64,000 nucleotides of DNA from Parcubacteria bacterium RAAC4_OD1_1 (GTDB lineage: Bacteria; Patescibacteriota; Minisyncoccia; Phycocordibacterales; UBA9973). This document shows positions 45,804 to 62,459 of the stretch, in pieces (position 1 is the first letter of the stretch; every line of letters starts with the position of its first letter). The stretch is taken from positions 487,772 to 551,771 of the forward strand of contig AWSN01000001.1 of the NCBI GenBank assembly GCA_000505065.1, read 5' to 3'. The translations under genes and the position numbers were made by a program. The notes under the pieces were generated by a model that searched no databases, was not told the origin of the DNA, and saw only the letters and a list, made by a program, of their open reading frames with translations.

Positions 45804-46682
45804 ATGAATAAAAATTTTCTTCCAAGTAAACAATTTGTCTCAAGAGTAATTAGTCTTGTTATTATTGCTATTGTTATCTTTGGTGGATATAAACTTTTTG
45901 GAATCATAAGTAATAAAATAAAAGACAGAAGTAATAAAGAAGTGGCTGTCACTATAAAAAAATCTGTCCAAAAAGATAGTAATGATAATGATATCCCCGA
46001 TTGGGAAGAATCTCTTTGGGGTCTTAACCCAAGGAAAAATGGTGAAGAAAACAAAGAATTTATTTTGGCAAAAAGAAAATTAATGATTCAAAATATTTCA
46101 AAAGAATCAAATGAAAGCATCTCTGAAAATGATGAGCTCACAAAAGCTTTTTTTTCTGTAATTATGTCACTTCAACAAACGGGTGATTTAGATGAAACAG
46201 CAGTAAATGCAATATCAGATACATATAGTGAAAAAATAGAAGCAACTCCAATAGAAGACTCATATATTTTAAAAGATTTAAATATTGTTCCCGATACAGA
46301 AGAAAATACAACAAAATACTATACTGATATGCAAAATACTATAAATAAATATAAAGAAAGTGGCATAGGTGAAGAATTGGGATTGATAGTTCAAGCAATC
46401 GCTTATAACGATCCGCAAGTCCTATACGCGGTTCAAACAATAGCATTATCATATAGAGATTTTGGCCAAGATCTAAGAAAAATTCAAGTGCCAAGCTTTT
46501 TATCTGAAATACACTTATCTTTAATAAATAATTGTGAGAAAAATGCTGTATCACTACACGATATGACTATGCTTTTTGATGATCCAATGATTGCAATGAA
46601 GGGAATTATAAATTATAAAAAATACAACGAGATACTTTCAATTAATTTAGGATCTCTATCCTATATCTTTGGGACAGAATAA
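45804..46682 (+). CDS. Hypothetical protein with N-terminal TM anchor
   Basis: 292 aa. Confidence 0.45.
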   Translation: MNKNFLPSKQFVSRVISLVIIAIVIFGGYKLFGIISNKIKDRSNKEVAVTIKKSVQKDSNDNDIPDWEESLWGLNPRKNGEENKEFILAKRKLMIQNISKESNESISENDELTKAFFSVIMSLQQTGDLDETAVNAISDTYSEKIEATPIEDSYILKDLNIVPDTEENTTKYYTDMQNTINKYKESGIGEELGLIVQAIAYNDPQVLYAVQTIALSYRDFGQDLRKIQVPSFLSEIHLSLINNCEKNAVSLHDMTMLFDDPMIAMKGIINYKKYNEILSINLGSLSYIFGTE

Positions 46683-46705: not shown

Positions 46706-49591
46706 ATGATAAATAAATTTATCAAAAACTACATACTGATCTCCTTAATTGTTTTAATGCAAATTATCACGCCATTAACATCAAGAGCTAGTGTTAATTT
46801 AAATTGGGACAATCCAAATAGTGGTAGAAATCCATATAAATTTAAATTATCTGACTATTTAAATTCAAATATGATGATGCAGGTTGTTGGTTGTACTGGA
46901 GTAGTAGATAAAGTAACACTTTCTATTGGTGATCTTGCTAGTGGAGATCTAGAAAGTCTACAAGACAGATGGACTAGCATTAAAAGAAAAACTGAAGAAG
47001 TAAAAAAATTAGTTATTGAAACAAATAAAGCATTGAGTGTAGCAATGGTACCCAAAGATCCTGGACCAGCCTTAACAGATATAGCTACAGACAGAATAAA
47101 TGAAACAGTTAATACCAAAAACGAAGAACTTCAAAATGCAGTACAAAAACTAAAAGATCAAAATAAATCTGTAAAGATGAGAGAGGAGTGCCTTAATGGT
47201 ATCGCTTATACTCTAGCAAAAAACCAACTTGTAGCAATGACAAAAAGTACTATGAACTGGGTAGCAACGGGGTTTGATGGTGATCCAATGTATGTAAGAA
47301 ATATGCAATTATTTGTCGGAGATATTGAGAGTAGAATAATGAATGCTGAATTAGAATATTTTCAAAATGCAAATCCAAGCAGATACCCATATGGTAGAGA
47401 CTTCGCTAGGTATTACTACGGAGCATACAATTCTGAAAAAAATTTTAGAGATTCAATGTCTCAAACATTAACTAGGCACCTAACTAATGGAAAATCAATC
47501 GAAGATTATACTTATGATTTTTCTGCTGGTGGGTGGGATGCTTGGCTTGGACTTACCCAAGAATCACAAAACAATCCTATAGGATATGCGATAGAAACAA
47601 GTAATTACATATCTAATAAACAACAAGAAGAAATTGAAAATACAAAACAAGAACTAACTCAAAATAATGGGATTATTTCTCAAAGGGTTTGCAAGGTGAC
47701 AAGTGCCACTAAAAAACTAGCTCAAAAAGAAATAAACAAACGAGAAGCTAATCAATACGTTATAGATGCTCAGAATAAAGTTGATGAGGCAGAATATTAT
47801 TATGAGCAAGCAGGTGGTAATGGAAATGACACAGAAGAACTCCAAGATGCAGCAGAAATACTAGCAAATGCAAGAATAGATCTTGAAAAAGCTTTGGCTT
47901 ACCAAGCATCGCTCGATGCAGAAAGTACTGATGCTGCAGAAGGTTGTGATGAATGGGAAATTGTTACTCCAGGAAGTTTTATACAAGATAAAATAAGCAC
48001 ATATCTAAATACACCAGAAACACAATTAGAAATGGCTGACACAATCAATGATGTCTTAAATGTTGTATTTGCAAAATTAATAGATAAATTAAGAATTGAT
48101 GGACTCACCGGGCTTGGATATAGCGCTGTATCAAATAGTAATTATGACTGGCCAACTTCAGTAAATATATCTGGATATGATAGTTCTGGAAACCAGTATG
48201 GTGGAGAAGGAATAAGTACTAGAAATTTTGATTTAACAAAAGATCTAGGTAATACTTACAATCATTCAGATACAACAAATTTAGGAACATGGGATGCTTC
48301 CATAAATAAAGCTATCAAAATAAAAGACAATACAACGACATCCCTTGTTCCTGGAAAGGGTCAAACAAATAGTTATTATACTGTCACAGTAGCTGGTAAA
48401 ACAAAACTTTTTGACGATGATTTAGGTTGGGAAGTTGGAGATAGAGCATTCTTTAATGGTATCTCTTGGCAAAATTGGAAAAAAGATCAAACTAGCCCAA
48501 TAATAAACAGAGGGATAATACAAATACAGCAAGATTACTTAGTTGTAGCAAAAGAACTTTTAAAAATATTACCAGGTGTAATGCCAGCACTTGGTGAACT
48601 TGATTATTGTATACCAGGACCAAATCCAAATTGGGAAATAAATATGAGTGACAACAGTGTAGCTTTCTTTGATTTTGTATCTGAATTAAAAACCACATAT
48701 AAACAAGCAGATGATTGGTTTGAAAAAGATTCTGTTGACATAACATGGGCAGGGGAAGACGCAAATAGTGATGCTTATAAAAATTATCGTAGTATATTTG
48801 CAAACTCTTATTTATCTGGATGGAAAGATAATTGGACTAGCTGGAGCTTAGCTATGAATACAAAAATTATGAATTATATAGATGTTCTTGCTAATGGCGA
48901 AGACTGGACAGGAGAAAAAGGGGTAGCTGAAGCAGAAGAAGAAATAGGAGAATTGATAAGTAATATTGTTGAAAGTTTTTCAATGTTCAAAGATGAATAT
49001 GGTAAAACAATAAGTGATACTTATGGAACGATTCAACAAGAATATTTCTTGAATGAAAAGACAAACACCAAAACTCCAAATAATGCTTATATACCTATGG
49101 CAAAAGAAGGTCTTACTTTAACTAAAAAAATTACAGATTATAATAATGAGGTTTCAGATTCAATACAAGATCTTAAAAATACAATGGGTGAAACAGATTC
49201 AACGATATCTAAATTAGAAAAAATAAGAAGTGAGGTTGGAAAAATAATAAAAGCAGCTCAAGATAGAAGAGATGAAACTATAACAATAGCATTAAATGCA
49301 AAAGGAGAAAATTTTACTACAAATACTGCCTATAAAATTAAATACCAGGTATGTCTAAATGAAGAAAATATAGATTATCTAAAAGACTATGATCTTACAC
49401 AAGAAGAAGAAAATAGGTGTGATGACAGAATAGATAATGATTTCGATGGACTCATAGACTCAAAAGACCCAGATTGTTCAGGATCAGGAAACACCAACAC
49501 AGAAAGAGACAGAAGAAGTGGTGGTAATAGTATTTATAATGATTACTATGAAAGTGATCAACCTTATATAAACACAGATCGAGGATATTAA
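46706..49591 (+). CDS. Large secreted hypothetical protein with C-terminal Cys-bracketed DxDxDG calcium-binding-like loop
   Basis: 961 aa with a signal peptide. The C-terminal motif CDDRIDNDFDGLIDSKDPDC follows a coiled-coil region. Confidence 0.5.
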   Translation: MINKFIKNYILISLIVLMQIITPLTSRASVNLNWDNPNSGRNPYKFKLSDYLNSNMMMQVVGCTGVVDKVTLSIGDLASGDLESLQDRWTSIKRKTEEVKKLVIETNKALSVAMVPKDPGPALTDIATDRINETVNTKNEELQNAVQKLKDQNKSVKMREECLNGIAYTLAKNQLVAMTKSTMNWVATGFDGDPMYVRNMQLFVGDIESRIMNAELEYFQNANPSRYPYGRDFARYYYGAYNSEKNFRDSMSQTLTRHLTNGKSIEDYTYDFSAGGWDAWLGLTQESQNNPIGYAIETSNYISNKQQEEIENTKQELTQNNGIISQRVCKVTSATKKLAQKEINKREANQYVIDAQNKVDEAEYYYEQAGGNGNDTEELQDAAEILANARIDLEKALAYQASLDAESTDAAEGCDEWEIVTPGSFIQDKISTYLNTPETQLEMADTINDVLNVVFAKLIDKLRIDGLTGLGYSAVSNSNYDWPTSVNISGYDSSGNQYGGEGISTRNFDLTKDLGNTYNHSDTTNLGTWDASINKAIKIKDNTTTSLVPGKGQTNSYYTVTVAGKTKLFDDDLGWEVGDRAFFNGISWQNWKKDQTSPIINRGIIQIQQDYLVVAKELLKILPGVMPALGELDYCIPGPNPNWEINMSDNSVAFFDFVSELKTTYKQADDWFEKDSVDITWAGEDANSDAYKNYRSIFANSYLSGWKDNWTSWSLAMNTKIMNYIDVLANGEDWTGEKGVAEAEEEIGELISNIVESFSMFKDEYGKTISDTYGTIQQEYFLNEKTNTKTPNNAYIPMAKEGLTLTKKITDYNNEVSDSIQDLKNTMGETDSTISKLEKIRSEVGKIIKAAQDRRDETITIALNAKGENFTTNTAYKIKYQVCLNEENIDYLKDYDLTQEEENRCDDRIDNDFDGLIDSKDPDCSGSGNTNTERDRRSGGNSIYNDYYESDQPYINTDRGY

Positions 49592-49605
49592 TTAATAAAT
49601 TATTT

Positions 49606-51696
49606 ATGGAAAACAAACCTAAAAAAAGTAAAGCGTTCATAATAACATTTATACTAGTACTAATAATACTTTTGGTGGGTTATTTATTATTTAAAAATAA
49701 AAATGGAATCTTTCAAATAAATAGTACAGAAAATACAAACAAAACTTTTGAATCTCTTTCGGAAACAAAAGAAGTAAAAGATTTGGGATATATAGACGTA
49801 GATACTGCAAATGAATGTATCTCTATTTCTGTAATTGCTGAAGAGGATATTTTTAAAGGTGAAGCAGTGTATGTATCCGGAGTAGGAGCAAACAAAGAAC
49901 CATTAGCAAAGAAAGCTATAGCAAATGATGAAACAAAATCAAAAGTAATTGGTGTCGCTATGGCAAATATTTTAGCTGGTACTACAGGAATAATAGCAAA
50001 TGATTGTATTGTGACAGGATTAAATACAGACAGAAATGAGGAGACTGTATGGCAAATAGGAGATATCCTCTACTTAAGTGATACAATATCAGGAGCTCTT
50101 ACAAAAAACCCTCCATCAAACAAAATAATAGTAGGAGTAGTAAAAACAGTTAATGCAATTGATGGATCTATTAAAGTGGGAGGAGCTGGAACAAATATTT
50201 TTGACTTATCGCAAGCTATTAAAGATGCAGGGATAGACACCAGCAAAGGAATAGTTTACGCAATAGAAAAATTGAAAAAACTGTTTGGAAATATTTTTGG
50301 ATATGAATACAATGGAGGAGAGTTTGATGCTAATGGACTAGGTGAGTGGGTTTGGGATGAAGAATATGGTGGATTTGTTTGGAAATGGAAAGGTGGTACA
50401 GGCGGATTTACTGGGCCAGATTTTCCAGATTTTGGATTTGAAAAAGCTTGTAGTAATGAAAACGATGATGACGGGGACGGATTTACAGATATAAATGATC
50501 CACAATGTCATATCGATGGAATTATTACAAATGAATATGTGCCTACACATTATTCAGAAGAGATAAATGCCATAAATCCAAATTTATATGCTTGCAGCAA
50601 TACACTTGATGATGATAACGATGAATTAATAGATATAAATGATCCACAATGTCATATCGATGGAATTATTACAAACGAATATGTGCCTACACATTATTCA
50701 GAAGAAATAAATGCTCCAAATTCAGATATAATACCGACACCAGATAGTGTTTGTGAAAATGGTATGTCCAACTATCCACTTTGTACAATTAACGAAAATG
50801 GAAATTGTGGAAATGGTGCGATAAACCCACCAATATGTACAGAATTTAGTAATGAAGATGAAACAGATCCAACAGGTGAAAATACTGAAACAAATATGTG
50901 TGCAGTTTTTGATGAACATCCTCTTGAATTTACAGAGAGTGAAAAAGCACAGCTTGCAGAACTTCTTCGAGAATTTTATTTAATTGCTCCTACTCTCAAA
51001 ACAGAAGATGATATAGATGCTCTATATACTGAAATAAATAGATATGAGCAATTAATAGATCAGTCAAAAAAACTTACCAAACAGTGTTATCTTGAATCTG
51101 CATATAGTGCACAATGGGAATATAATGATCCAACATGGACATATGCAGGGGCTGGATCATTCTGTGCAAGAAATCCAGAATACTGTAGTAAAAAGGGTGT
51201 CACGAGTCAAACAAATTGTGATCTTTATGGATGCGCAGATGGAGTAGATGTATTTAATGATAAATACACAGGCCCTACAAAAAGAGGAGGGAACCCTTGG
51301 TTTAGGTCAATAACAATAGGTGGATATGTAGATAACACAAAATACAGCACACCAAAGATAAATACTGACGTAAATTATGTTATGAAAAGTCACGGCAATG
51401 ATAGACCAGAAAGCTCAAAACATTCACAAGAAGTACTAGAGAGTGGGTGGTGGACTTATGCAACGCCTATTTTTGGTGTGTTTACAACATTTAAAGCTTT
51501 TGATGAAAAAAATATGGTGCCTGATTATTATTTTACAATACCAAATACAATATATACTCCACTAATTACAAAACTACCTGCATCTCAAAATGGTAGAAAC
51601 TTTCAACAAGATTGGGAATTCTATTTTGATTTTGATTTAAACAAGGTTATGTTGGAAAGACTTAAAGAGTTTGAGTTGTTACTTTATATCTGGTAA
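49606..51696 (+). CDS. Hypothetical membrane-anchored extracellular protein with duplicated DDDGDG...DPQC calcium-binding-like repeats
   Basis: 696 aa with an N-terminal TM helix. A ~55-aa repeat occurs twice, encoded by a near-identical ~85-bp direct repeat. Confidence 0.5.
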   Translation: MENKPKKSKAFIITFILVLIILLVGYLLFKNKNGIFQINSTENTNKTFESLSETKEVKDLGYIDVDTANECISISVIAEEDIFKGEAVYVSGVGANKEPLAKKAIANDETKSKVIGVAMANILAGTTGIIANDCIVTGLNTDRNEETVWQIGDILYLSDTISGALTKNPPSNKIIVGVVKTVNAIDGSIKVGGAGTNIFDLSQAIKDAGIDTSKGIVYAIEKLKKLFGNIFGYEYNGGEFDANGLGEWVWDEEYGGFVWKWKGGTGGFTGPDFPDFGFEKACSNENDDDGDGFTDINDPQCHIDGIITNEYVPTHYSEEINAINPNLYACSNTLDDDNDELIDINDPQCHIDGIITNEYVPTHYSEEINAPNSDIIPTPDSVCENGMSNYPLCTINENGNCGNGAINPPICTEFSNEDETDPTGENTETNMCAVFDEHPLEFTESEKAQLAELLREFYLIAPTLKTEDDIDALYTEINRYEQLIDQSKKLTKQCYLESAYSAQWEYNDPTWTYAGAGSFCARNPEYCSKKGVTSQTNCDLYGCADGVDVFNDKYTGPTKRGGNPWFRSITIGGYVDNTKYSTPKINTDVNYVMKSHGNDRPESSKHSQEVLESGWWTYATPIFGVFTTFKAFDEKNMVPDYYFTIPNTIYTPLITKLPASQNGRNFQQDWEFYFDFDLNKVMLERLKEFELLLYIW

Positions 51697-51779
51697 TTTA
51701 AGAGATTTTGTTTTTAGAATTTGGTATAATAAAATAAGTTTTGTTAAAAAAGATAAATGAAACCTGTTAGAAATAAAAA

Positions 51780-54464
51780 ATGAAGAAGTTTTTTTCCTAC
51801 ATTTTAATATCAATAGTTATGGTGGCCAACCTCCTCGCGCCTTTTAGTATGAAATTGGGGAGTAATTATTTGCCAAGAATTGAAAAAAATGAAGCGAGTG
51901 CAGATGCAAAGCAAATAACAATGACAACAACAGCGAAGGGAACAACAATAAACGCAACAGTAACAGCTGTATTTACGGGTGAAGCTAATCAAATAAATTT
52001 TGCTTCTGTTTTTCTATATGATCAATACCCATATGATGAAAACAATAAACCAGCTGAAATAGATTCTATTGATAGTAGAGATGTTTTTGGAGAATTTAAA
52101 ATTTTAAACAATGATGAGGATATAACCAAAACAGCAACCGTGTCATTTGACAATCTAACTCCTGAAAAAACATATTATTTGGTAGCAGTAGGTGGTACAA
52201 AAAGTATCTTTAAAGCTTTAATTAATTTAAACACACTAAGATTTAATAAACTTTTTGAGTCAACAAGTAAAACTGGTTATACAAATGCAATACCACAAGA
52301 AACAGGAATGAAAGACTCCCAAGTTTTAATCCAAGGATCTGGAACAGCATCTGCTTTTAATGCAGACGCGGCTCTACCTTCTTGTAAGGCAACAGATGCA
52401 ACTACTTGGGTTCGAGGTTGTGTAGTTAGACTTATTTATTATATTATTTTTGTGCCAACATCTTTTTTCTTTGCATTAACTGGAATGTTTCTTGATTCAA
52501 CATTTGCTTATACAGTAGATAGTGCTTCATATCAAACTCAATTCATAACCCAAAGTTGGGGAATAGTTAGAGACCTTTGTAATATGTTCTTTATATTTGT
52601 ACTTCTATATATTGCTTTTTCAACAATACTCGAAATACATGGATTTAATACAAAAAAGACAATTATTAATGTAATAATCATTGGTCTTTTAATAAATTTC
52701 AGTTTATTTGCTGTGAGAATTATGGTGGATGCATCAAACATACTAGCTAGGGTTTTCTATAACTCAGATACAATAAAAATTACTAACGTCTCAGCCTTAA
52801 ATATCAGTAATATGGTAGATAAACCAAACGAAAATGGAGTAATTTCTATCTCGGCTGCTATTGTAAACAAAATAAACCCACAAGTTTTAATATTAAAAGC
52901 AAATGGCAATGAACAAGCTGGAATGGGTGGTTTCTCAACTATCTCTTATGTTGTTATTGTGTTACTTGCTTCTATTGTAAATATAGTGGGCATAATAGTA
53001 TTCCTATCTACAGGATTACTTTTTGTGACAAGAGTCATAGGGCTTTGGATAGCGATGATACTTTCTCCACTTGCATTTTTTACCTATATAATTCCATCTT
53101 GGAGTAAACAAAAAATGATAGGATGGGAAAACTGGTGGCCAGACACTCTAAAAATGGCTTTCCTTGCTCCTATTTTTATTTTCTTTATGTATATAATTCT
53201 TCAATTTATGGATACAGGACTTGGGCTTTTTGATGCAGCAGAAGAAGAAGGAATGACATTAATATTAGCAATAGTTATTCCTTTCATATTTATAATGATA
53301 CTTCTCTGGCAAGCGAAAAAAATTGCAAGCGATATGTCTGGAGAAATGGGACAATCTATAACTAAAGGTGTCGCTGCTGTCGGTGGCCTTGCTCTCGGTG
53401 GGGCAGCTTTGGGAGTAGCAGGATTGGGTAGAAAGTTTATAGGTGGAACAATGGCAAAAGCCTCTAGTGGAAATACTGCAACTCAAAAATATCTGGCAGC
53501 ACAAGGAGACCCTAATGCTATGGCTAAATTAAGCAAATGGGAACAAATGAAAGGTAGAATGGGGGCAAGAGTTGGTATGGATAAAGTTTACGGGAGGGTT
53601 GGAACAGATGCAAATGGAAATAAAGTTATTACCGGAGGGGTTGGAAAATATGTAAACGATAAACAAAAACATGTTGGTAATATAGATCATGCGAGACATG
53701 AAATGGATGAAACTAAAAAAGCAGCTGGGCTTACTGGGGTTACAAACTTAACCGGGGAAGATGAGAAGAAGCTTGAATCAACTTTTGCAAAAAATAAAAG
53801 ATCTGAAGTTGAAGCTAATGTAAGAAGAGGAACGGATAATAAAAAAGATATTGCATTAAAAGATAATGATGGTAATGCACTATTAGATGGACAGGGAAAT
53901 GAAATTAAGGGTGAAGATGCTTGGAAAAAAGAAAAGAGAAGTGAAATTGAAACTAATTACATAAATGATCCTAATAATAATATAAAAAGTGTAGAAGATC
54001 TAACAGATAAAGATAAGAAAAATATTGAAAATGAATTAAATAAACAATTTAACCTTGTTCTTAAAAATACAACAGAAAAAGAAATTAAAAGTTTATTTGA
54101 AGATATTAAGAAAGAGGCAAATACAAAAGTTGGTTCTCTTGATAGAGTAACAGCAACAGCAAACAAAAGAAGCTTTGACATAAGAAACATTTCAGATGTT
54201 AATAAAACAGACAAAAGAGATGGTTTTATGACAAAAACAGCTGCATTTTTGGCTTCTACTGTCGCACTTGGTGTGAGGACAGGATTTAAAACTTCAGGAA
54301 TTAACATTGGAACAAGTCAAAGGGATTTTATTTTGGATTTAAAAAATACAATTACTGAAGCATTTAAAAATGTAAAAATTGAAGTCCCTAAAGCTTCTGG
54401 TGGAGGAGATCATGGGGGTGGGGGACACGGAGGAGGCGATCACGGAGGTGGGGGACACCATTAA
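51780..54464 (+). CDS. Large polytopic membrane protein, possible VirB6/TrbL-like T4SS channel component, with Gly/His-rich C-terminal tail
   Basis: The signal peptide and ectodomain are followed by at least 6 TM helices, a coiled C-terminal domain, and a GGGDHGGGGHGGGDHGGGGHH tail. Confidence 0.35.
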   Translation: MKKFFSYILISIVMVANLLAPFSMKLGSNYLPRIEKNEASADAKQITMTTTAKGTTINATVTAVFTGEANQINFASVFLYDQYPYDENNKPAEIDSIDSRDVFGEFKILNNDEDITKTATVSFDNLTPEKTYYLVAVGGTKSIFKALINLNTLRFNKLFESTSKTGYTNAIPQETGMKDSQVLIQGSGTASAFNADAALPSCKATDATTWVRGCVVRLIYYIIFVPTSFFFALTGMFLDSTFAYTVDSASYQTQFITQSWGIVRDLCNMFFIFVLLYIAFSTILEIHGFNTKKTIINVIIIGLLINFSLFAVRIMVDASNILARVFYNSDTIKITNVSALNISNMVDKPNENGVISISAAIVNKINPQVLILKANGNEQAGMGGFSTISYVVIVLLASIVNIVGIIVFLSTGLLFVTRVIGLWIAMILSPLAFFTYIIPSWSKQKMIGWENWWPDTLKMAFLAPIFIFFMYIILQFMDTGLGLFDAAEEEGMTLILAIVIPFIFIMILLWQAKKIASDMSGEMGQSITKGVAAVGGLALGGAALGVAGLGRKFIGGTMAKASSGNTATQKYLAAQGDPNAMAKLSKWEQMKGRMGARVGMDKVYGRVGTDANGNKVITGGVGKYVNDKQKHVGNIDHARHEMDETKKAAGLTGVTNLTGEDEKKLESTFAKNKRSEVEANVRRGTDNKKDIALKDNDGNALLDGQGNEIKGEDAWKKEKRSEIETNYINDPNNNIKSVEDLTDKDKKNIENELNKQFNLVLKNTTEKEIKSLFEDIKKEANTKVGSLDRVTATANKRSFDIRNISDVNKTDKRDGFMTKTAAFLASTVALGVRTGFKTSGINIGTSQRDFILDLKNTITEAFKNVKIEVPKASGGGDHGGGGHGGGDHGGGGHH

Positions 54465-54492
54465 TTAGTGATTAGTAACTAGTGACTAGTGA
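54464..54492 (+). promoter_or_regulatory. ACTAG-repeat motif (reverse orientation) upstream of gene 54514
   Basis: ttagtgattagtaactagtgactagtgat is followed by an AAGGA Shine-Dalgarno. Confidence 0.45.
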
Positions 54493-54513
54493 TAAGGAAA
54501 ATAAAAAATTAAA

Positions 54514-55437
54514 ATGCAAAACCAAGAATTACAACAAAAAATAGGAGAATTCTATGTAAGACTTCCAGAAGATTTAAAAAGTGTGTTTTCTGATATGAGT
54601 TGGATGGAAAAAGTTCGGACAATTGGTGTAAAAAATTATTTAAATGATAGACAAAAAGAAATTCTAATTACAGAAACAACCTTAGTCCTTCTTGGAATAA
54701 TAAATACTTATGATTATGAATCAAACCTTACAAACGAGCTTGGTCTTTCTGTTGAACCTCTCACTAAACTCATAAAAGATTTGGATGAATCTATTTTTGT
54801 GGGTATAAAAGAAAAACTAAATGATGTATTTACAAACAACGTAGATTATTTAATGACTTCAAAATATGGTAGTTTAGATAAAATAAAGGAAGAATTTACA
54901 AAACTCCCAGAAGAAATACAAGAATGGATAGATAATTCAAATTATCAATCAAAAATATATGAAATAGGTGAAAAATATAAACTTACTGCGACCCAAATGC
55001 TAGATATTGAAGGAATCATCTCAAGAGTTATGATGGGTAATTTACCTTTTCTTAAATATGAAGAAGAAATCAAATTAAAACTTGGTGATGGTTTTCCAAA
55101 AATAAATCCAATTTTATATGAAATAAAAGAAAACATATTAAAAGAAGCGGAAGAAAAATTAAACAAATTGACAGTTCTAAATAAAATAGGAGCAACAAAA
55201 ATAGAGATAAATAAAGGAGAAGATGTTGTACCAAGACCTCCATATGCTCAAATGATCACAAATAATTATGATCTTAAGGGAGAAAGGGTAAACAATGTTA
55301 GAAGTTCTATTTTAGTATCAAAACCAGCCCCTAAAAATGAAAAAGAAATATACACAAATTCGGGAATAGAAATAGTTGAACACCAAGAAGAAACTCAATC
55401 TAAACCAAAAATAGACCCTTATCACGAGGAAATATAA
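54514..55437 (+). CDS. Hypothetical cytoplasmic protein
   Basis: 307 aa. An ACTAG-repeat motif lies upstream. Confidence 0.45.
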   Translation: MQNQELQQKIGEFYVRLPEDLKSVFSDMSWMEKVRTIGVKNYLNDRQKEILITETTLVLLGIINTYDYESNLTNELGLSVEPLTKLIKDLDESIFVGIKEKLNDVFTNNVDYLMTSKYGSLDKIKEEFTKLPEEIQEWIDNSNYQSKIYEIGEKYKLTATQMLDIEGIISRVMMGNLPFLKYEEEIKLKLGDGFPKINPILYEIKENILKEAEEKLNKLTVLNKIGATKIEINKGEDVVPRPPYAQMITNNYDLKGERVNNVRSSILVSKPAPKNEKEIYTNSGIEIVEHQEETQSKPKIDPYHEEI

Positions 55438-55497
55438 ATTATTAATTAAATTGTTTTGTGATATAATACTAATATAAGTTAATTAGTAATTATTGAA

Positions 55498-56013
55498 ATG
55501 CAATTTAGAGTTCCACAATTTATAGACATAGAAGACAAACTTTTTGGACCGTTTACGTTTCGGCAATTTGTATATCTCACTGGTGGAGCAGGGGGAGTTT
55601 TTGTACTATATAAAATTTTACCATTTTGGCTAGCAATTATTTTTATAATACCCGTCATTTCACTAACTCTACTTCTCACTTTTTATAAAATTAATGAGAA
55701 ACCATTTATATATTACCTAGAAGCAGGTCTTGGTTATTTTATATCAAACAAATTATATCTCTGGAAACAAAGAAAAGTTAAAAAAAATACAGAGGAAATA
55801 AATACTTCTGTTAATATTACTTCTGTAATCCCAATGTCAACAGGGAGTAATAGGCTTGGTGATTTATCTTTCAAATTAGATACAGAAGGAGAAAATACAA
55901 ATATCTCGGCTTATAAACAAATGAAAAAAGATAATGCTCAAAAAATAGATCTAAACATTACAGAAGAAGATATAGTAAAAGATATTTCAAATTATGATAC
56001 AATAAACAAATAA
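55498..56013 (+). CDS. Small two-TM membrane protein, VirB3-like (position immediately upstream of VirB4-like genes)
   Basis: A hairpin of two TM helices (VYLTGGAGGVFVLYKILPFWLAIIFIIPVISLTLLL) sits immediately upstream of the VirB4-like ORFs. Confidence 0.35.
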   Translation: MQFRVPQFIDIEDKLFGPFTFRQFVYLTGGAGGVFVLYKILPFWLAIIFIIPVISLTLLLTFYKINEKPFIYYLEAGLGYFISNKLYLWKQRKVKKNTEEINTSVNITSVIPMSTGSNRLGDLSFKLDTEGENTNISAYKQMKKDNAQKIDLNITEEDIVKDISNYDTINK

Positions 56014-56019
56014 ACAAAT

Positions 56020-56667
56020 ATGGCAATCAACGCAAAAAGTTCACAAGATTTTGTACCAATAAAAGAAGTGAGAGATGGGGTTATCATTCTTAAAGATGGA
56101 GGCCTTCGTTCTGTTCTTATTGCTTCATCTATAAATTTGTCACTTAAATCAAACGATGAACAACTTGCAATAATAAATCAGTTTCAATCATTCTTAAATG
56201 GTCTTGATTTTCAAACACAAATTGTCGTCCAATCAAGAAGACTAGACATAAGACCATATTTAATGACACTTGAAGAAAGATTTAAAGAGCAAGTAGAGCC
56301 ACTTCTTAAAATTCAAACCAAAGAATACATAGAGTTTATAACTCGGTTTACTGATGAAGTAAACATAATGAGAAAAACTTTCTTTGTTGTTGTACCTTAT
56401 AATTCAAACATTATAAAATCTAGTGAAAAAATAGTGGATAAAATTATAGGTGGAGGATCATCAGCACCCAAAAATCCAAACAAAAGTATAGATACAGCTT
56501 CGTTTGAGGAAAAGAGAACTCAGCTAGACCAAAGAGTAAATGTTATAATTTCTGAATTAAGTAGACTTGGTATAAGATGTACAGAACTCAAATCAGATGA
56601 AGTAATAGAGCTATTTTATAAAACTTTCAATCCTGGAGATATTAGTAGTGGAATAAAATTAGAATAA
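56020..56667 (+). CDS. VirB4/TrbE/CagE N-terminal domain-like protein (first half of a split VirB4)
   Basis: DGVIILKDGGLRSVLIASSINLSLKSNDEQLAIINQFQSFL aligns with the VirB4 N-terminal region DHIVLLEDGSIMAMFHLHGLPFELAPNEERNARIEALNMLL, which I recalled from A. tumefaciens VirB4. Confidence 0.45.
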   Translation: MAINAKSSQDFVPIKEVRDGVIILKDGGLRSVLIASSINLSLKSNDEQLAIINQFQSFLNGLDFQTQIVVQSRRLDIRPYLMTLEERFKEQVEPLLKIQTKEYIEFITRFTDEVNIMRKTFFVVVPYNSNIIKSSEKIVDKIIGGGSSAPKNPNKSIDTASFEEKRTQLDQRVNVIISELSRLGIRCTELKSDEVIELFYKTFNPGDISSGIKLE

Positions 56668-56674
56668 TATTATT

Positions 56675-58504
56675 ATGGGAATTTTTTCATCATTATTTAA
56701 TAAAAAAAACGATAATACAAAGAGTAGCAAAACTCCGATCCTTCCAGATGAGGTCTATAAAGCTGCTGAACTCGAACTCCAAGACATAGTAGCCCCATCA
56801 GCGCTTCAAATAACCCCCAAATCATTAAATTTAGGAGATAAGATAGCCAGAACATTTTTTGTTATCTCATATCCTAGATACCTTACAGATAATTGGTTTT
56901 CTCCGGTTATAAACCTAGATAAAGTTTTTGATGTTTCTATTTTTATACATCCTATTGAAACCGCTGAAATATTAAGATCTTTCCAAAAGAAAGTTGCTGA
57001 AGTGCAAAGTCAGATATCTATCAGGGAATCAAAAGGTTTAGTTCGAGACCCAATGCTAGACACAGCCTATCATGACTTAGAAGAATTGAGGGACAACCTT
57101 ATGCAAGCCCAAGAAAGGATGTTTAATGTGGGCCTTTATATAACGGTCTATGCAGATAATGAAAATGATTTATTTAAAATAGAAAATGAAATTAAATCTA
57201 TTTTGGAATCCAAGCTTGTTTATTTAAAACCTGCTCTTTTCCAACAAGTAGAAGGTTTTAAAAGTGTAATTCCACTCGGTACAGATATGCTTGCTGTTCA
57301 TCAAAAATTAAACACTGAGCCACTTTCTAGTATTTTTCCATTTGTATCTTTTGATCTTACTTCAGATAATGGAATACTTTATGGTGTAAACAGACATAAT
57401 TCTAGTTTGATTATTTTTGACAGATTTTCACTTCCAAACTATAACTCTATTACTTTTGCTACTTCTGGTGCTGGTAAATCATATGCCACTAAACTAGAAA
57501 TTCTTAGAACTTTAATGTTTGACACAGAAGTAATAGTTATAGACCCAGAAAGAGAGTATGAATACCTTGCAGAAGCAGCAGGAGGAAGGTATTTTAATAT
57601 TGCACTTTCTTCAGAACACCATATAAATCCTTTTGATCTACCAATTCCTACCAAAGACGAAACGGGAGCTGATGTTCTTCGAGGGAACATTATAAACCTT
57701 GTCGGTCTTTTTAGAATAATGCTAGGAGGTTTAACACCTGAAGAAGATTCAATAATAGACAGGGCAATAACTGAAACATATGCTTTAAAAGACATTACAG
57801 CAGAATCAAATTTCTCAAATATCGAGCCACCATTATTATCTGATTTTGAAATGGTCCTAGCTGGTATGGAGGGAAGTGAATCATTAATGCAAAGACTCAC
57901 CAAATACACCAAAGGATCTTGGGCATCTTTCTTAAACCAACCATCAAATATAAACATAAATCATAAGTTTATAGTTTTTTCTGTGAGAGATATGGAAGAT
58001 GAGCTCAAACCAATTGCAATGTATATTGTTACACATTATATTTGGAATTCTGTCAGAAAAAATATAAAGAAAAGACTACTTGTGGTAGATGAAGCCTGGT
58101 GGATGATGAAATCAGAAGATACAGCTTCCTTCTTATATTCTATAGCTAAAAGAGGCCGTAAATACTATTTAGGGCTAGCTACAATTACTCAGGATGTGGG
58201 TGACTTTATGAAAAGTAATTATGGTATTCCTATTATTACAAACTCTTCAATACAACTCCTACTAAAACAATCTCCTTCAACAATAGACGCTCTTCAAAAT
58301 ACTTTTAATCTCACAGATGAAGAAAAGTATCTACTTCTTGAAGCAAACACAGGGGAAGGAATATTTTTTGCTGGACTCAAACACGTAGCTGTAAAAGTAA
58401 TCTCTTCTTATACTGAGGACCAAATTATAACATCAGACCCATCTCAAATACTCTCAATTCAAAAAGCCAAAGAAGAGTTTCTTGCCTCAGGTGGCAACAA
58501 ATAA
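56675..58504 (+). CDS. VirB4-like type IV secretion ATPase, C-terminal ATPase part
   Basis: Walker A TSGAGKSY, Walker B LLVVDEAWWMM, and a downstream ATITQDVGDF motif. Confidence 0.6.
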   Translation: MGIFSSLFNKKNDNTKSSKTPILPDEVYKAAELELQDIVAPSALQITPKSLNLGDKIARTFFVISYPRYLTDNWFSPVINLDKVFDVSIFIHPIETAEILRSFQKKVAEVQSQISIRESKGLVRDPMLDTAYHDLEELRDNLMQAQERMFNVGLYITVYADNENDLFKIENEIKSILESKLVYLKPALFQQVEGFKSVIPLGTDMLAVHQKLNTEPLSSIFPFVSFDLTSDNGILYGVNRHNSSLIIFDRFSLPNYNSITFATSGAGKSYATKLEILRTLMFDTEVIVIDPEREYEYLAEAAGGRYFNIALSSEHHINPFDLPIPTKDETGADVLRGNIINLVGLFRIMLGGLTPEEDSIIDRAITETYALKDITAESNFSNIEPPLLSDFEMVLAGMEGSESLMQRLTKYTKGSWASFLNQPSNININHKFIVFSVRDMEDELKPIAMYIVTHYIWNSVRKNIKKRLLVVDEAWWMMKSEDTASFLYSIAKRGRKYYLGLATITQDVGDFMKSNYGIPIITNSSIQLLLKQSPSTIDALQNTFNLTDEEKYLLLEANTGEGIFFAGLKHVAVKVISSYTEDQIITSDPSQILSIQKAKEEFLASGGNK

Positions 58505-58548
58505 ATAGGGTTGTTTCATATTCAAAGTTATCATATAATATAAGAGTA

Positions 58549-59544
58549 ATGAGCCTAAAGACAAAAATTTTTTTATTAATTTCTATTATTGTTGGTGTTT
58601 TTACCATATCAAATTTTTCTAACGCAGAACAAGAAATTATGGTTCTTGAAAGTGATATAAATGTAGAAACTATTCCAGAAAACCCAGAACCATATCAAGA
58701 TATCACTATTATACTCAAAAGTTATGCTACTGATTTAAACAAAGCCAAAATAGAGTGGCTTATGGGTTCAAGTGTGGTCCTTTCTGGAATAGGAAAAACC
58801 AAATACTCTTTTACGGCACCAGGTCCAAATGAAACAACAACTTTTAGTGTTTCTATAACTCCACAAAATTCAATATCTAATATCTTAAAAAAAATATCAA
58901 TAAACCCATCAGAAATAGAGCTTATATGGGAAGCAGTAGATAGCTACACCCCTCCTTTCTATAAAGGAAAATCTTTTGCGAGTAGAGAGGGGAAAATAAA
59001 AGTTGTCGCAATCCCAAACACCAATACTATAAAATCTGGAAAGGGGAGTGTCTCATATACTTGGAAATATGGTGAGGGGGAGAACACAGACCAAAATGCT
59101 TCTGGCTATGGTAAGGATTATTTTATAATTAAAAACAAAGCTTTAAATACAAAAGAATATGTAAAAATTATAGCTTCTTCTGTTGATGGTAAATATAATG
59201 CAACAAAGAAAATTGAAATTCCACTGGTAAATTCAAAAATACTTTTTTACAAAAAATCTCCAACAGAAGGAGTGCTTTATAGTGAAGCAATAAAAGATGA
59301 TTCTTATTTAGAGGAAGATGAAATCACCCTCGTCGCAGAACCATACTTTTTTTCTATAGAAAATCCAAAATCAATTGTTTATAACTGGAAAGTAAACAAT
59401 AAAAGCATAGATACACCAAGTAAAAAAACTGAAGTGACTCTTCGTCCCGCTTCTCGAGGTGGGTACGCCACAATAGGGCTCACAATGGAAGATATGAGTG
59501 CCCTTTTTCAAAAAGTTACTAGTAGTATAAAAATAAATTTATAA
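58549..59544 (+). CDS. Secreted hypothetical protein
   Basis: 331 aa with a signal peptide. Confidence 0.45.
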   Translation: MSLKTKIFLLISIIVGVFTISNFSNAEQEIMVLESDINVETIPENPEPYQDITIILKSYATDLNKAKIEWLMGSSVVLSGIGKTKYSFTAPGPNETTTFSVSITPQNSISNILKKISINPSEIELIWEAVDSYTPPFYKGKSFASREGKIKVVAIPNTNTIKSGKGSVSYTWKYGEGENTDQNASGYGKDYFIIKNKALNTKEYVKIIASSVDGKYNATKKIEIPLVNSKILFYKKSPTEGVLYSEAIKDDSYLEEDEITLVAEPYFFSIENPKSIVYNWKVNNKSIDTPSKKTEVTLRPASRGGYATIGLTMEDMSALFQKVTSSIKINL

Positions 59545-59545
59545 A

Positions 59546-60955
59546 ATGAATAAAAAAATATTTTTTAAAATTCTAATATCATCAATTATCGTATTAAATA
59601 CAATAATGCCATTTAATATATCTGTTGCAAATAGTAAAAATATTGAAATAACAGTAAATCCAGATGATACTAATAATTTAGGAATAAATATTGATGGAGT
59701 TTTTAGGGTAAATGAAGAAATTTCTTCTGGTATGGTTATATATTCTATAAGTAAAAACCCTGATGATTATGCAACAAAAACAGTATTTAATGAGGAACTT
59801 AATACTAATGGTAAAGAAAGTAGTGGAATATGGTCATATAGTTTTGGACAAAAATTATATCAATACTCAAATGGTGGAAATGATCTTTTGGGTGTAGTTA
59901 AAGGGGATAAATACTATGCTACCGTAATCATAATAACTTCAGCAACATCACAACATTCTGAATATAAATATGTAAGCAATACAGTTTTGTTTACAGCTGG
60001 AACTCCATCTGAAACTCCTCCACTAGGTGGAGGTCAAATCGAAGATGAACCAATAGACATAGAAACAAGAAATAATATTGGAAATGTAAATTTAAATGAA
60101 TACCAACCTCTTGCTCCAATTCCAGGATTTACAGATGAAACAGTAAGTACTAACAACATAGGCCAATACTTCAATGTTATATTTAAATTTGCAATTGGAC
60201 TTGCTGGGGCACTTGCTGTGATAATGATAATAATAGGTGGAATTCAATATATGGGAGATGAATCAATTTTTGGAAAAACTGAGGCTAAAAAAAGAATTTT
60301 TTCTGCTATACTTGGGCTTCTTATTGCACTTGGCTCGTGGGCAATACTAAACACAATAGATCCAAATTTACTAGGAACTAAAGGATTAAAAGTAAAACAA
60401 GTTAGTTTTGAAATAGTTAACCTTCCAGATGCTGGTGATAATACTATAGACCCAGATTTTAACACTGGTTCTGGTAGTTATTCTGTAGGAACTGTTTCTC
60501 CTAGTGTCGCAAATGCAGTAACAAAATTAAAACAAGGATGGGAAATTGATGCTTTTAGAGTTTACCCTAGCAACAACAGAATGGTAATTTCATTAAAAAA
60601 AGGAAGTGAGGTAGATAATACAAATCTAATAACAATATCTCCAGGAGAAAATGGATATGCTGAAATTGGAAAAGGTGTCGTTAGGGATGGTAAAACACCA
60701 AAGGGTGAATGGAAAATATTGAGCATAAGAAAATCAAAAGATAATCAACCTGTATACAGTGCCGAAGGGGCAAATATGGGAGCAACTTTTTGGTTATTAA
60801 GTCCTACAAATAATGGAGAAAGGGGGATAGGGATGCATGGTAATAAAAATGGGACCTTGGGCGAAACAGCAGGATGTTTAAGATTAACAAATGCAGACCT
60901 ATTAGCATTATTACCATATGTAAAAACAGGAATATCTGTTAATATTAAAGATTAA
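59546..60955 (+). CDS. Secreted protein with internal VirB2/TrbC pilin-like two-helix hairpin and C-terminal L,D-transpeptidase (YkuD)-like domain
   Basis: The hydrophobic pair is FKFAIGLAGALAVIMIIIGGIQY...RIFSAILGLLIALGSWAILN. The C-terminal motif is GMHGNKNGTLGETAGCLRL. Confidence 0.45.
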   Translation: MNKKIFFKILISSIIVLNTIMPFNISVANSKNIEITVNPDDTNNLGINIDGVFRVNEEISSGMVIYSISKNPDDYATKTVFNEELNTNGKESSGIWSYSFGQKLYQYSNGGNDLLGVVKGDKYYATVIIITSATSQHSEYKYVSNTVLFTAGTPSETPPLGGGQIEDEPIDIETRNNIGNVNLNEYQPLAPIPGFTDETVSTNNIGQYFNVIFKFAIGLAGALAVIMIIIGGIQYMGDESIFGKTEAKKRIFSAILGLLIALGSWAILNTIDPNLLGTKGLKVKQVSFEIVNLPDAGDNTIDPDFNTGSGSYSVGTVSPSVANAVTKLKQGWEIDAFRVYPSNNRMVISLKKGSEVDNTNLITISPGENGYAEIGKGVVRDGKTPKGEWKILSIRKSKDNQPVYSAEGANMGATFWLLSPTNNGERGIGMHGNKNGTLGETAGCLRLTNADLLALLPYVKTGISVNIKD

Positions 60956-60958
60956 TCT

Positions 60959-62419
60959 ATGCAATCAACAAATAATAAAAAAATAATATATTTGATAATA
61001 GGGATAGTAATATTATCTGTTGCTCTTGGTTTTTATTTCTTTAAAAATAGAAATACCAACGTAGAAAAAAATGGGGATGATACAAACTATCAAAATTTTA
61101 ATCCATTTGGAAGCGGAAAAGAAACGGATGGAAATAATATAAAAGAAAATGATATAGAAAATACTAGCAATCTAGAAGAAAATTCAAAATTTAAAAAATT
61201 AACTGATTTTGCTGTGGCTGGAATAACAATCTTTGAATACGACAGACCACTTGATGGATCAAAAGTAGTAGAACCAATAAAAATTTTAATTGATTCATCT
61301 ACAAAAGATGGTAAAAAAGAAATTCAGACTTTTTTAAATAAAGAATTAAGTTTAAATCCTGCTCTTAAAATAGATGGAGTATTGGGTAAAGCTTCAATCT
61401 CTGCAATAAAATCATTCCAAAAAACAAAAACACTTCCAGAAACAGGAATGATAGACGAGGAAACAAATAAATATTTTTATAAATTAGATAATTCAAACAT
61501 ACAACAAACAGAAAAAGTAGAAGCTGTTAAATATGTAGAAAAAGCTACTGGACACATATACCAAATAGATTTAGACAAAAACACACAAAACAAAGTTTCA
61601 AATTCTACAATACCTCAAATTAATGAAGTCTTGTTTAGTGATAATGCAAAAAGTATCATTTATAGATATTTATCTGAAGATAAAACAATAAGTTCTTATC
61701 TAGCAACAATGGGGGCAACAAGTGGAAATTTTCTACCTTCAAATATTATTGAAATAGCAACATCACCAACTAAAGATAAGGTTTTTTATCTTGTTAAAAA
61801 TGAAGATGGTGTTTATGGAACTATTAGAAATTTTATAGACGGTAGAACAAATTCATTTTTTAATTCATCTTTTACAGAATGGCTTATAGATTGGGATAGG
61901 GAAGACCAAATACTCCTTACAACAAAGCCATCGTGGTCTGTAAATGGAAGCTTATTTGCTTTAAACATAAACACGGGAACTATGACAAAAATATTGGGTG
62001 GAATAAAAGGATTTACTACCACATCAAACAAAGATAATTCTTTGATTTTATATAGTTCTTCAACAAACAATGGTCCAAAATTAAATATTTTTAATATAGA
62101 CAAACATACATCTCTTGATTTAGACACTTATGGATTAGCAGACAAATGTGTATGGAGTAATGATGGTGTAAATATTTATTGTGCAATTCCTAGTAAAATA
62201 GTAGGAAATGAATATCCAGATGCTTGGTATCAAGGACTTGTTTCTTTTGATGATTTTTTTGTAAAAATAAATAGTGAAACAGGAGAGAAAGAAACCTTAG
62301 CAAATAGTATAAATAAAATAAGCTTAGATGGTGTTAATTTGTTATTAAATAAAGATGAAAGTAAAATCTTTTTTATAAATAAAAAAGATAATACATTTTG
62401 GAGTTTAGATCTTAAATAA
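60959..62419 (+). CDS. Membrane-anchored protein with peptidoglycan-binding domain (PG_binding_1-like) and C-terminal beta-rich domain
   Basis: KIDGVLGKASISAIKSFQKTKTLPETGMIDEETNKYF matches a PG-binding domain. There is an N-terminal TM helix. Confidence 0.5.
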   Translation: MQSTNNKKIIYLIIGIVILSVALGFYFFKNRNTNVEKNGDDTNYQNFNPFGSGKETDGNNIKENDIENTSNLEENSKFKKLTDFAVAGITIFEYDRPLDGSKVVEPIKILIDSSTKDGKKEIQTFLNKELSLNPALKIDGVLGKASISAIKSFQKTKTLPETGMIDEETNKYFYKLDNSNIQQTEKVEAVKYVEKATGHIYQIDLDKNTQNKVSNSTIPQINEVLFSDNAKSIIYRYLSEDKTISSYLATMGATSGNFLPSNIIEIATSPTKDKVFYLVKNEDGVYGTIRNFIDGRTNSFFNSSFTEWLIDWDREDQILLTTKPSWSVNGSLFALNINTGTMTKILGGIKGFTTTSNKDNSLILYSSSTNNGPKLNIFNIDKHTSLDLDTYGLADKCVWSNDGVNIYCAIPSKIVGNEYPDAWYQGLVSFDDFFVKINSETGEKETLANSINKISLDGVNLLLNKDESKIFFINKKDNTFWSLDLK

Positions 62420-62429
62420 ATTTAAAAAA

Positions 62430-62459
62430 TAAAACACCCGAATGGGTGTTTTATTTTTT
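62430..62459. terminator. Bidirectional terminator between gene 60959-62419 and jag
   Basis: The sequence is aaaacacccgaatgggtgttttatttttt. Confidence 0.65.

Follow-up and report, generated by a model that had tools for sequence, protein, structure and literature searches.

A type IV secretion-type gene cluster near the replication origin of a Paceibacteria genome, with a pilin hairpin fused to a peptidoglycan enzyme

What kind of apparatus is encoded at positions 46706-62419 of a 64,000-nucleotide stretch of the genome of Parcubacteria bacterium RAAC4_OD1_1 (contig AWSN01000001.1, positions 487,772 to 551,771 of the forward strand; the whole stretch is called the window), and on whose cell wall does the enzyme built into its pilin-like subunit act? 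An earlier note, made from the sequence alone, had described the locus as a type IV secretion-like apparatus with cell-wall remodelling partners. All ten open reading frames (ORFs) that it listed, called O1 to O10 here, were found in place; they are co-oriented on the plus strand and separated by intergenic gaps of 1-83 nt, forming an operon-like block. The cluster is read here, with a probability of about 0.75, as a chromosomally fixed, origin-proximal type IV secretion system (T4SS) of the Paceibacteria (Candidatus Nomurabacteria), which belongs to the Patescibacteria clade of Gram-positive-like (MPF-FATA) systems and is non-conjugative. As such the cluster is a further member of a class already known, the T4SSs published for the ultra-small, episymbiotic Patescibacteria. 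The fusion of its pilin to a swappable peptidoglycan-enzyme tail is apparently an undescribed part of the system.

The VirB4 core and its place in the chromosome

Three consecutive genes identify the apparatus:

55498-56013, plus strand: O5, a PrgI/VirB3-like protein with two transmembrane (TM) segments (PF12666, E 1.9e-8, 35.2 bits against a gathering score of 27)
56020-56667, plus strand: O6, a TrsD-like protein, the VirB4 N-terminal domain as an ORF of its own (NF045975 VirB4_plasma, E 1.5e-12)
56675-58504, plus strand: O7, a VirB4 ATPase of the CD1110/MPF-FATA type (NF045971, 380.2 bits against a cut-off of 325)

Relatives were found by scanning one genome per GTDB species with O7. At least 585 were found, and the locus comparisons refer to the best 80 of them (L001-L080), which are metagenome-assembled genomes (MAGs) of Paceibacteria/Nomurabacteria with O7 identities of 75-87%. 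The ORFs in these loci were called mechanically, the longest ORF being taken.

O7 also matches the TraG P-loop domain (PF19044, E 3.7e-25). It contains Walker A (ATSGAGKS, aa 262-269, nt 57455-57481), Walker B (LLVVDEAW, aa 468-475, nt 58076-58099) and an ITQ motif (aa 504-506, nt 58184-58192), from which the earlier note had recognized a VirB4-like ATPase. Assignment to a P-loop family foreign to T4SSs, such as FtsK or HerA, would have spoken against that note. The profile searches place O7 in the CD1110 family of VirB4, not with FtsK or HerA; the DUF87/HerA match is marginal, at 27 bits compared to 380 bits for VirB4.

The VirB4 protein is split. The alignment of O7 with PrgJ of plasmid pCF10 (26% identity, E 7e-43) starts only at PrgJ residue 244. 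The N-terminal domain is contributed by O6, and the two proteins together constitute one VirB4. O6 further matches TrsD/TraD (NF041427, E 3.2e-7), positions 2-129 of the CD1110 model and, in precomputed annotation, the TraC-like family PF26593. Its scores are significant yet lie under the full-length cut-offs (30 bits against 200 for NF041427), as is expected of a fragment. A frameshift was rejected as the cause of the split, since all 80 related loci have an independent ORF of about 212-217 aa before virB4. The VirB4 N-domain-like ORF of the earlier note is thus genuine, and it corresponds to the known TrsD component (PMC12102498). The Trs systems of pGO1 and pSK41 (TrsC, TrsD, TrsE) likewise have a small separate TrsD, homologous to the VirB4 N-terminus, beside the VirB4 ATPase (PMC12102498). 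Unlike the present cluster, they are plasmid-borne and conjugative, and the O6 match is far under the family cut-off. O5 has its hydrophobic hairpin at aa 30-66 and was found in 76 of the 80 loci; its VirB3 assignment, previously based on topology and position only, now has the Pfam PrgI match behind it.

Patescibacteria T4SSs have been described as having a VirB4 clade related to MPF-FATA, abundant TrsD and PrgI, VirB6, VirB2-like pilins and almost no relaxases; in Paceibacteria they lie near dnaA, ksgA, rnpA and rpmH (PMC12102498). The T4SS is essential for the epibiotic growth of S. epibionticum (PMC10633639; reviewed in PMC12857230). The present cluster resembles these systems (S. epibionticum SEML1_0006-0019, Wang 2023, PMC10633639; Quinonero-Coronel 2025, PMC12102498) in its MPF-FATA-related VirB4, its PrgI/VirB3, the TrsD-like ORF beside virB4, a candidate VirB6-like protein (O3), a VirB2-like hairpin of family PF18895 (in O9), the absence of a relaxase from the window and the chromosomal position near dnaA, ksgA, rnpA and rpmH. 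The earlier remark that episymbiotic bacteria use T4SS-like systems in host interaction agrees with the same two papers.

The position of the cluster can be deduced from a Candidatus Nomurabacteria MAG, GCA_003543255.1, in which identical proteins are recorded as hypothetical (DIC38_00795, DIC38_00800 and DIC38_00825). There the order is dnaN-dnaA, rpmH-rnpA-yidD-yidC-jag and then the convergent T4SS cluster, with ksgA upstream of it. By the gene order of that MAG, a distance of about 3.3 kb separates the end of the operon from dnaA; this is the near-origin chromosomal location reported for Paceibacteria. In the window, jag/khpB and yidC lie downstream, convergent to O10, and the upstream flank consists of housekeeping genes (PNPase, comM, an M23/LysM peptidase, pcrA and ksgA); nusA, H+-PPase, trigger factor, RNase Y and CCA-adding enzyme genes are found further off. 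The order PcrA-KsgA-292aa-O1-O3-O4-O5-O6-O7-O8-O9-O10-jag-yidC, in which 292aa stands for an upstream gene described below, is kept across the best 80 relatives, which answers the earlier note's suggestion that synteny be checked. In these loci VirB4 is 75-87% identical, compared to 35-67% for YidC, 42-51% for KsgA and 47-65% for PcrA; to judge by these identities, VirB4 is under tighter constraint than the adjoining housekeeping genes. The GC content of the window is low throughout (0.25-0.39), and that of the cluster (0.29-0.34) is not distinct from it, being uniform at about 0.31. The identical location and order in relatives, the housekeeping flanks and the uniform composition indicate that this is a core chromosomal system and not a mobile one.

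These data bear directly on the possibility that DNA is transferred by the cluster, which would then be a conjugative or integrative element (ICE) like its closest relatives outside the candidate phyla radiation. The VirB4 falls in the CD1110 conjugal-transfer family, the PrgI, TrsD and pilin-like matches are all to conjugation proteins, and the window contains a tyrosine recombinase (28572-29570) and a Y1 transposase-like ORF (44101-44799). However, neither a relaxase nor a VirD4-type coupling protein, for which the earlier note had recommended a search, was found among the 30 longest ORFs of the 64-kb window scanned with profiles, and the remaining ORFs of the window are too short to encode either. 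In 80 species-level genomes the cluster has the same place between ksgA and jag-yidC-rnpA-rpmH-dnaA, and the composition is uniform. The Y1 ORF is absent from all relatives, and the recombinase resembles XerC/D and is found 17 kb off, surrounded by housekeeping genes. Furthermore, relaxases occur in only about 100 of several thousand Patescibacteria genomes (PMC12102498). A mobile element was rejected on synteny, flanks and composition; it is largely refuted and is considered very improbable.

A ComB-like competence system for DNA uptake is also unlikely, if somewhat less so. It is general knowledge that T4SSs lacking a relaxase and a type IV coupling protein can import DNA, H. pylori ComB being an example. 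The window has a comM-like gene (34444-36009), and the cluster of class ABY1 adjoins comF, recG and radA (PMC12102498). Against this, comM lies 10 kb away among unrelated genes and no ComB-specific components were found. Competence of S. epibionticum needs type IV pili and ComEC, and deletion of comEC is viable, whereas the T4SS is essential (PMC10633639, PMC12857230).

The O9 fusion protein and the tails of its relatives

The pilin-enzyme fusion is encoded two genes after virB4:

59546-60955, plus strand: O9, with a signal peptide, a head, a pilin hairpin (PF18895, 28.2 bits against a gathering score of 26.6) and a YkuD domain (PF03734, E 1e-9)

O9 consists of a signal peptide, a variable head (aa 29-185), a VirB2-type hairpin (aa 186-277, nt 60101-60376) and a YkuD L,D-transpeptidase domain (aa 339-467, nt 60560-60946). 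The hairpin has two TM helices with a conserved charged loop, and both the head and the tail are extracytoplasmic. The earlier note had proposed the pilin-like hairpin from topology only; the match to the Pfam family T4SS_pilin is above the gathering score, and there are further matches to TrbC/VirB2 (E 0.003) and to a mycoplasma ICE pilin-like family (NF045849, E 2e-5). A comparison of the hairpin family with PrgF by hhalign was not significant, the single 75-aa PrgF sequence carrying too little signal. The L,D-transpeptidase-like domain that the note had seen fused to the hairpin is present as well. Residues H431, G432, C444 and R446 align with the HG...GCIR motif of B. subtilis YkuD, and the catalytic H, G, C and R are kept in 54, 54, 54 and 51 of 55 homologs, respectively. 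By this motif the domain is predicted to be catalytically intact.

O9 is the sole hairpin gene in the window. A gene of this type occupies the same position after virB4 in 70 loci, 65 of which have exactly one. In this respect the cluster is unlike other Patescibacteria T4SSs, which have arrays of 2-11 pilins instead of a single cluster-encoded one, and whose pilins are not described as carrying a swappable peptidoglycan-enzyme tail.

The intact, conserved catalytic residues, and the annotation of homologs as ErfK/SrfK transpeptidases, would suit a housekeeping L,D-transpeptidase for which the hairpin is a mere membrane anchor and the proximity of virB4 is meaningless. This explanation is improbable because the anchor is a specific, highly conserved hairpin of the VirB2 family and its position after virB4 is fixed. 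In addition, the enzyme is replaced in relatives by hydrolases of unrelated folds, which is unexpected of a housekeeping cross-linking enzyme.

The extent of this replacement was not apparent in the earlier note: the L,D-transpeptidase it described is there, but it is one of many interchangeable tails. In the relatives the hairpin follows virB4 and O8 as a constant element with the consensus YxLLAPLP...YLN..IK..IG..AVLAVIMIV.GGI.YMTSE....K..GK..I..A..GL..AL..Y..LNTINP.L, while the head (28-478 aa, often immunoglobulin (Ig)-like) and the tail vary. Among 75 hairpin proteins, Pfam recognizes tails of the types NlpC/P60 (14), VanY/M15 (11), YkuD (5), SLT (about 5), Amidase_5 (3), Amidase_2 (1) and 3D (1). 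About 35 of the 75 tails have no Pfam match; tail clusters 1, 4, 6, 9 and 11 and the singletons remain without one at E 0.1. Some of these contain, by eye only, putative M15-like (H..G.A.D...H.H) or lysozyme-like (E...GLFQ) motifs. The recognized tails at the O9 position are almost all peptidoglycan enzymes. The hairpin family has 16,376 representatives at 50% identity (E <= 1e-3), and in an independent sample of the 107 top representatives about 70 have a recognizable peptidoglycan enzyme (44 VanY, 13 SLT, 8 NlpC/P60 and others).

The fraction of protein pairs with homologous tails is 0.08-0.16 in every bin of hairpin identity, except for the 80-90% bin (0 of 3 pairs). Being flat across the bins, it shows tail type to be independent of hairpin similarity. 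The nearest relatives (VirB4 86-87% and hairpin 65-75% identical) have other tails, none of them YkuD. Five genomes have two O9 paralogs, whose DNA is 78-99.6% identical up to a point shortly past the hairpin, after which the tails are unrelated. In the four paralog pairs that have the conserved NTINP motif, the identity extends from at or near the 5' end to 53-69 nt past that motif, placing the swap point about 20 codons after it. No immunity-like gene follows O9 in any related locus; O10 begins within 3 nt of O9 and is conserved whatever the tail type. The uncoupling of tail and hairpin, the different tails of the nearest relatives, the paralogs with shared heads and the lack of an immunity-like gene point to an exchange of tails as cassettes at a fixed junction.

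The five loci with two paralogs are L016, L041, L058, L067 and L074, and the pairs combine, for example, NlpC/P60 and SLT-like or Amidase_2 and SLT-like tails. The copies are non-adjacent in L016 and L067, and in L016 they are found on either side of the O10 homolog. Some database relatives have 3 to 10 hairpin copies per polypeptide: P0361 (618 aa), P0365, P0377 (1046 aa), P0386 (1147 aa) and P0410. These are tandem-fused pilin arrays, not arrays of separate genes. No mention of pilin-enzyme fusions, YkuD or tail polymorphism was found in the papers on Patescibacteria T4SSs or by searching the full texts of the literature.

Two known classes of protein resemble O9. The VirB1-type hydrolases (VirB1, PrgK, TraG of pIP501, CwlT and TcpG) are also wall-active, membrane-anchored and encoded in T4SS operons, and the NlpC/P60, SLT and amidase tails of the O9 relatives belong to the same families. 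However, the anchor of O9 is a VirB2-family hairpin, and the YkuD fold has not been reported as a T4SS component. The polymorphic toxin and effector loci (CdiA-CT, Rhs and those of type VI and type VII secretion systems) share with the O9 family a constant N-terminal delivery module, a sharp junction (here NTINP and about 20 codons), unrelated C-terminal enzyme domains that are swapped between close relatives, and paralogs with the same head and different tails. In contrast to them, neither a cognate immunity gene nor orphan tail cassettes are present here, and the tails may act on the producer's own wall.

The second resemblance raises the possibility that O9 and its relatives are tools directed at a host. 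The hairpin polymer or tip would present swappable domains that cleave or edit peptidoglycan to the wall of the attached host, opening it for the conduit, and the type of tail would be selected by the chemistry of the host peptidoglycan. The NlpC/P60, M15/VanY, SLT, amidase and YkuD tails form the repertoire of the antibacterial effectors of other systems, with the YkuD-fold type VI effector Tlde1a as a precedent (PMC9638812). The termini of VirB2, of which PrgF is the Gram-positive version, face the outside of the pilus (bioRxiv 10.64898/2025.12.18.695078). The uncoupling of tail type from hairpin similarity and the same-head, different-tail paralogs, which are typical of polymorphic effector loci, fit the idea too. 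On the other side, O10 directly follows O9 where an immunity gene might be sought, and the enzyme is tethered to the producer's membrane, beside the producer's wall. The same domains can be explained without a host, since Gram-positive T4SSs require a membrane-anchored hydrolase for the wall of their own cell. Moreover, according to a preprint, some Paceibacteria have archaeal hosts that lack peptidoglycan (bioRxiv 10.1101/2023.08.25.554742). Host-directed action is considered the less likely possibility, and action of the O9 enzyme on the producer's own wall is the preferred reading.

The other proteins of the cluster and its surroundings

The remaining elements of the block are:

45804-46682, plus strand: up_292, an upstream gene (292 aa) conserved in synteny in 37 related loci, where it lies between ksgA and O1
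46706-49591, plus strand: O1, a secreted protein of 961 aa with a signal peptide; homologs of 23-35% identity in 43 loci
49606-51696, plus strand: O2, 696 aa, with an N-terminal hydrophobic anchor; only in the 9 closest loci, and there in part
51780-54464, plus strand: O3, a polytopic membrane protein of 894 aa with a signal peptide and about 7 TM helices
54514-55437, plus strand: O4, a soluble (cytoplasmic) protein of 307 aa without TM segments; at the same position in 38 loci
58549-59544, plus strand: O8, an N-terminal signal peptide or anchor and three tandem beta-sandwich domains like Ig or fibronectin type III (FnIII) domains (AlphaFold2 model, pLDDT 87.5)
60959-62419, plus strand: O10, a TM anchor, PG_binding_1 (PF01471, E 2.8e-7) and a conserved C-terminal domain
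62420-62463, no strand: a bidirectional terminator-like hairpin with a 20-bp stem, which closes the operon between O10 and the convergent jag/khpB

In O3 the signal peptide is followed by an ectodomain resembling FnIII (aa 43-139) and a bundle of 7 TM helices (aa 207-563), and then by a helical domain in the cytoplasm (aa 567-863) and a tail of Gly and His. The signal peptide and at least six TM helices of the earlier note were therefore found, and the evidence for its VirB6-like label is structural. Sequence comparison gave none: Pfam gave no VirB6 evidence for 36 homologs, nor for 7 further homologs with a faint precomputed PF19590 match, and a profile search of the PDB and an hhalign comparison with PrgH gave no support either. 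The identification of O3 as an extended VirB6-like protein is moderately supported by the predicted fold. In its Gly/His-rich C-terminus, GGGDHGGGGHGGGDHGGGGHH (aa 864-894, 54369-54464), residues H883, G891, H893 and H894 are nearly invariant in 71 homologs, which points to a cytoplasmic tail with a role in metal binding or interaction. O4, the cytoplasmic hypothetical protein noted before between the VirB6-like and two-TM proteins, has no Pfam, NCBIfam or PDB match (the PDB being searched by profile). Although fast-evolving, it keeps an invariant C-terminal D-P-Y (aa 301-303, 55414-55422; consensus K.DPYRE.IE in 21 homologs), which may be a docking peptide.

With O3 and O9 in place, the cluster can be compared to the Prg/Pcf system of pCF10 from Enterococcus faecalis. 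O3, O5, O7 and O9 are collinear with prgH (VirB6), prgI (VirB3), prgJ (VirB4) and prgK (peptidoglycan hydrolase), with O4, O6 and O8 interposed here, and both systems operate in a monoderm envelope. However, pCF10 has a relaxase, the VirD4 homolog PcfC, the adhesin PrgB and the VirB8-like PrgL, and its parts specific to conjugation are all lacking here. In pCF10 VirB4 is one undivided polypeptide, the hydrolase PrgK has SLT/CHAP-type domains, and the pilin PrgF is a separate protein of 75 aa.

O8, the secreted protein noted after the ATPase, directly follows virB4 in 78 of the 80 loci. It was considered as a candidate VirB8 and rejected, because the confident AlphaFold2 model has three Ig-like domains and not an NTF2 fold; Foldseek finds only generic Ig/FnIII tandems. 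From this model O8 is taken to be a conserved, presumably wall-spanning accessory protein. In O10, the peptidoglycan-binding domain that had been reported (aa 120-169, nt 61316-61465) is present but accessory, occurring in 4 of 46 O10 homologs, and a dedicated peptidoglycan-binding protein was rejected on that count. The conserved portion is the C-terminal domain of about 300 aa, kept in 68 loci; a profile search of the PDB gave TolB as the sole match, which is not significant (E 0.75).

The gene up_292 is probably the first gene of the block, in addition to the ten listed before. Its product has a TM anchor (aa 6-37) and an acidic DxDxDG-like motif, DSNDNDIPDWEE (aa 58-69; family consensus DTDGDGIxDWEE), and no Pfam match. 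The Cys-bracketed DxDxDG loops described earlier in O1 and O2 have the form C-x-DxDxDG-x-D-x-DP-x-C. One is found in the C-terminal part of O1 (aa 905-924, nt 49418-49477) and two in O2 (aa 282-301, nt 50449-50508, and aa 330-349, nt 50593-50652). The loops score 29 and 39 bits against the acidic double-disulfide repeat NF033662, both under its cut-off of 41 bits; O1 has a weak match to a teneurin C-rich Ca-binding peptide (E 0.056), to which O2 also has a weak resemblance, and neither O1 nor O2, searched as single sequences, matches the PDB significantly. O1 may be located at the surface, serve as an adhesin or be a substrate. In O2 a unit of about 48 aa is duplicated in tandem almost perfectly (aa 279-372, 50440-50720); it is composed of the acidic Cys-bracketed loop followed by HIDGIITNEYVPTHYSEEINA. 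The three-Ig O8, O10 and the acidic-loop proteins are not described for the Patescibacteria T4SSs in PMC10633639 and PMC12102498.

Upstream of pcrA, and outside the conserved block, two further ORFs have no Pfam family match. One (38628-41681) encodes a Lys/Glu-rich, coiled-coil-like protein of 1017 aa with a central hydrophobic stretch rich in Gly and Ala, and the other (37800-38504) a protein of 234 aa that starts with a lipoprotein-like signal and has a TM segment in its interior. The window also contains a perfect GC-rich 19-bp palindrome, GTCCAGGC(CTT/AAG)GCCTGGAC, in 8 copies compared to 0 expected in shuffles (window positions 23664, 28830, 30934, 44092, 44306, 44838, 45360 and 45380). 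Several copies are inside ORFs, three of them in ksgA. Five cluster around the Y1/IS200-like transposase ORF at 44101-44799 (PF01797, E 6e-9), which lies between pcrA and ksgA and is found in this genome only, none of the 80 related loci having it. The palindrome and the transposase ORF look like a pair of a repetitive extragenic palindrome and its associated tyrosine transposase (REP/RAYT type).

A possible mechanism and its meaning

VirB4 provides the energy with which VirB2 subunits are drawn out of the membrane and placed on a VirB6 platform. By analogy, in the chromosomal T4SS proposed here O3 would form the membrane platform, and O5 and O6 would tether an O7 hexamer. ATP hydrolysis by O7 would pull O9 hairpins from the membrane and stack them on O3, building a short tube that crosses the wall. 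Both VirB2-type termini lie on the outer side of the tube, and O9 would therefore expose its Ig-like head and its peptidoglycan-active tail in the wall zone. There the tail would locally re-work peptide stems, standing in for a hydrolase of the VirB1/PrgK type. O8, with its three Ig domains, and the wall-binding O10 might be wall-spanning scaffolds in place of VirB8/9/10, and up_292, O1 and O2 might be surface, adhesin or substrate (cargo) proteins. The likely role of the apparatus is traffic with a host cell, either export or uptake of protein, and not conjugation.

Several points weigh against this interpretation. The hairpin of O9 is flanked by about 185 aa before and about 190 aa after it, so that polymerization may be sterically hard. 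YkuD is a transpeptidase family and not a classical VirB1-type hydrolase. The absence of a relaxase and VirD4 pertains to the 64-kb window, and a distant copy is possible. Finally, no VirB8-like bitopic protein of the NTF2 fold was matched in the cluster, although VirB8 was also mostly undetected in the published survey of Patescibacteria T4SSs (PMC12102498).

A bolder version of the mechanism may be considered, in which the O9 hairpins polymerize on the VirB6-like platform into an enzyme-studded pilus that crosses the wall. Each subunit would contribute an Ig-like head and an enzyme, the pilus would bore through or edit the wall of the host, and the tails would be exchanged at NTINP to fit the chemistry of that wall. 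This proposal is speculative and, on the present evidence, rather unlikely.

No T4SS other than that of the Patescibacteria has been reported as essential for the growth of its bearer. The locus shows that in the very large Paceibacteria lineage the genes of the apparatus form a core set at the replication origin, and that the one pilin-like subunit carries in the same polypeptide a wall-active enzyme, which is exchanged between species. If only the producer's wall is remodelled, O9 would amount to a compact fusion of VirB1 and VirB2 that concerns mainly specialists on T4SSs. If the enzymes are indeed displayed on a polymer, they would represent a new way to couple a secretion conduit to the penetration of a cell wall.

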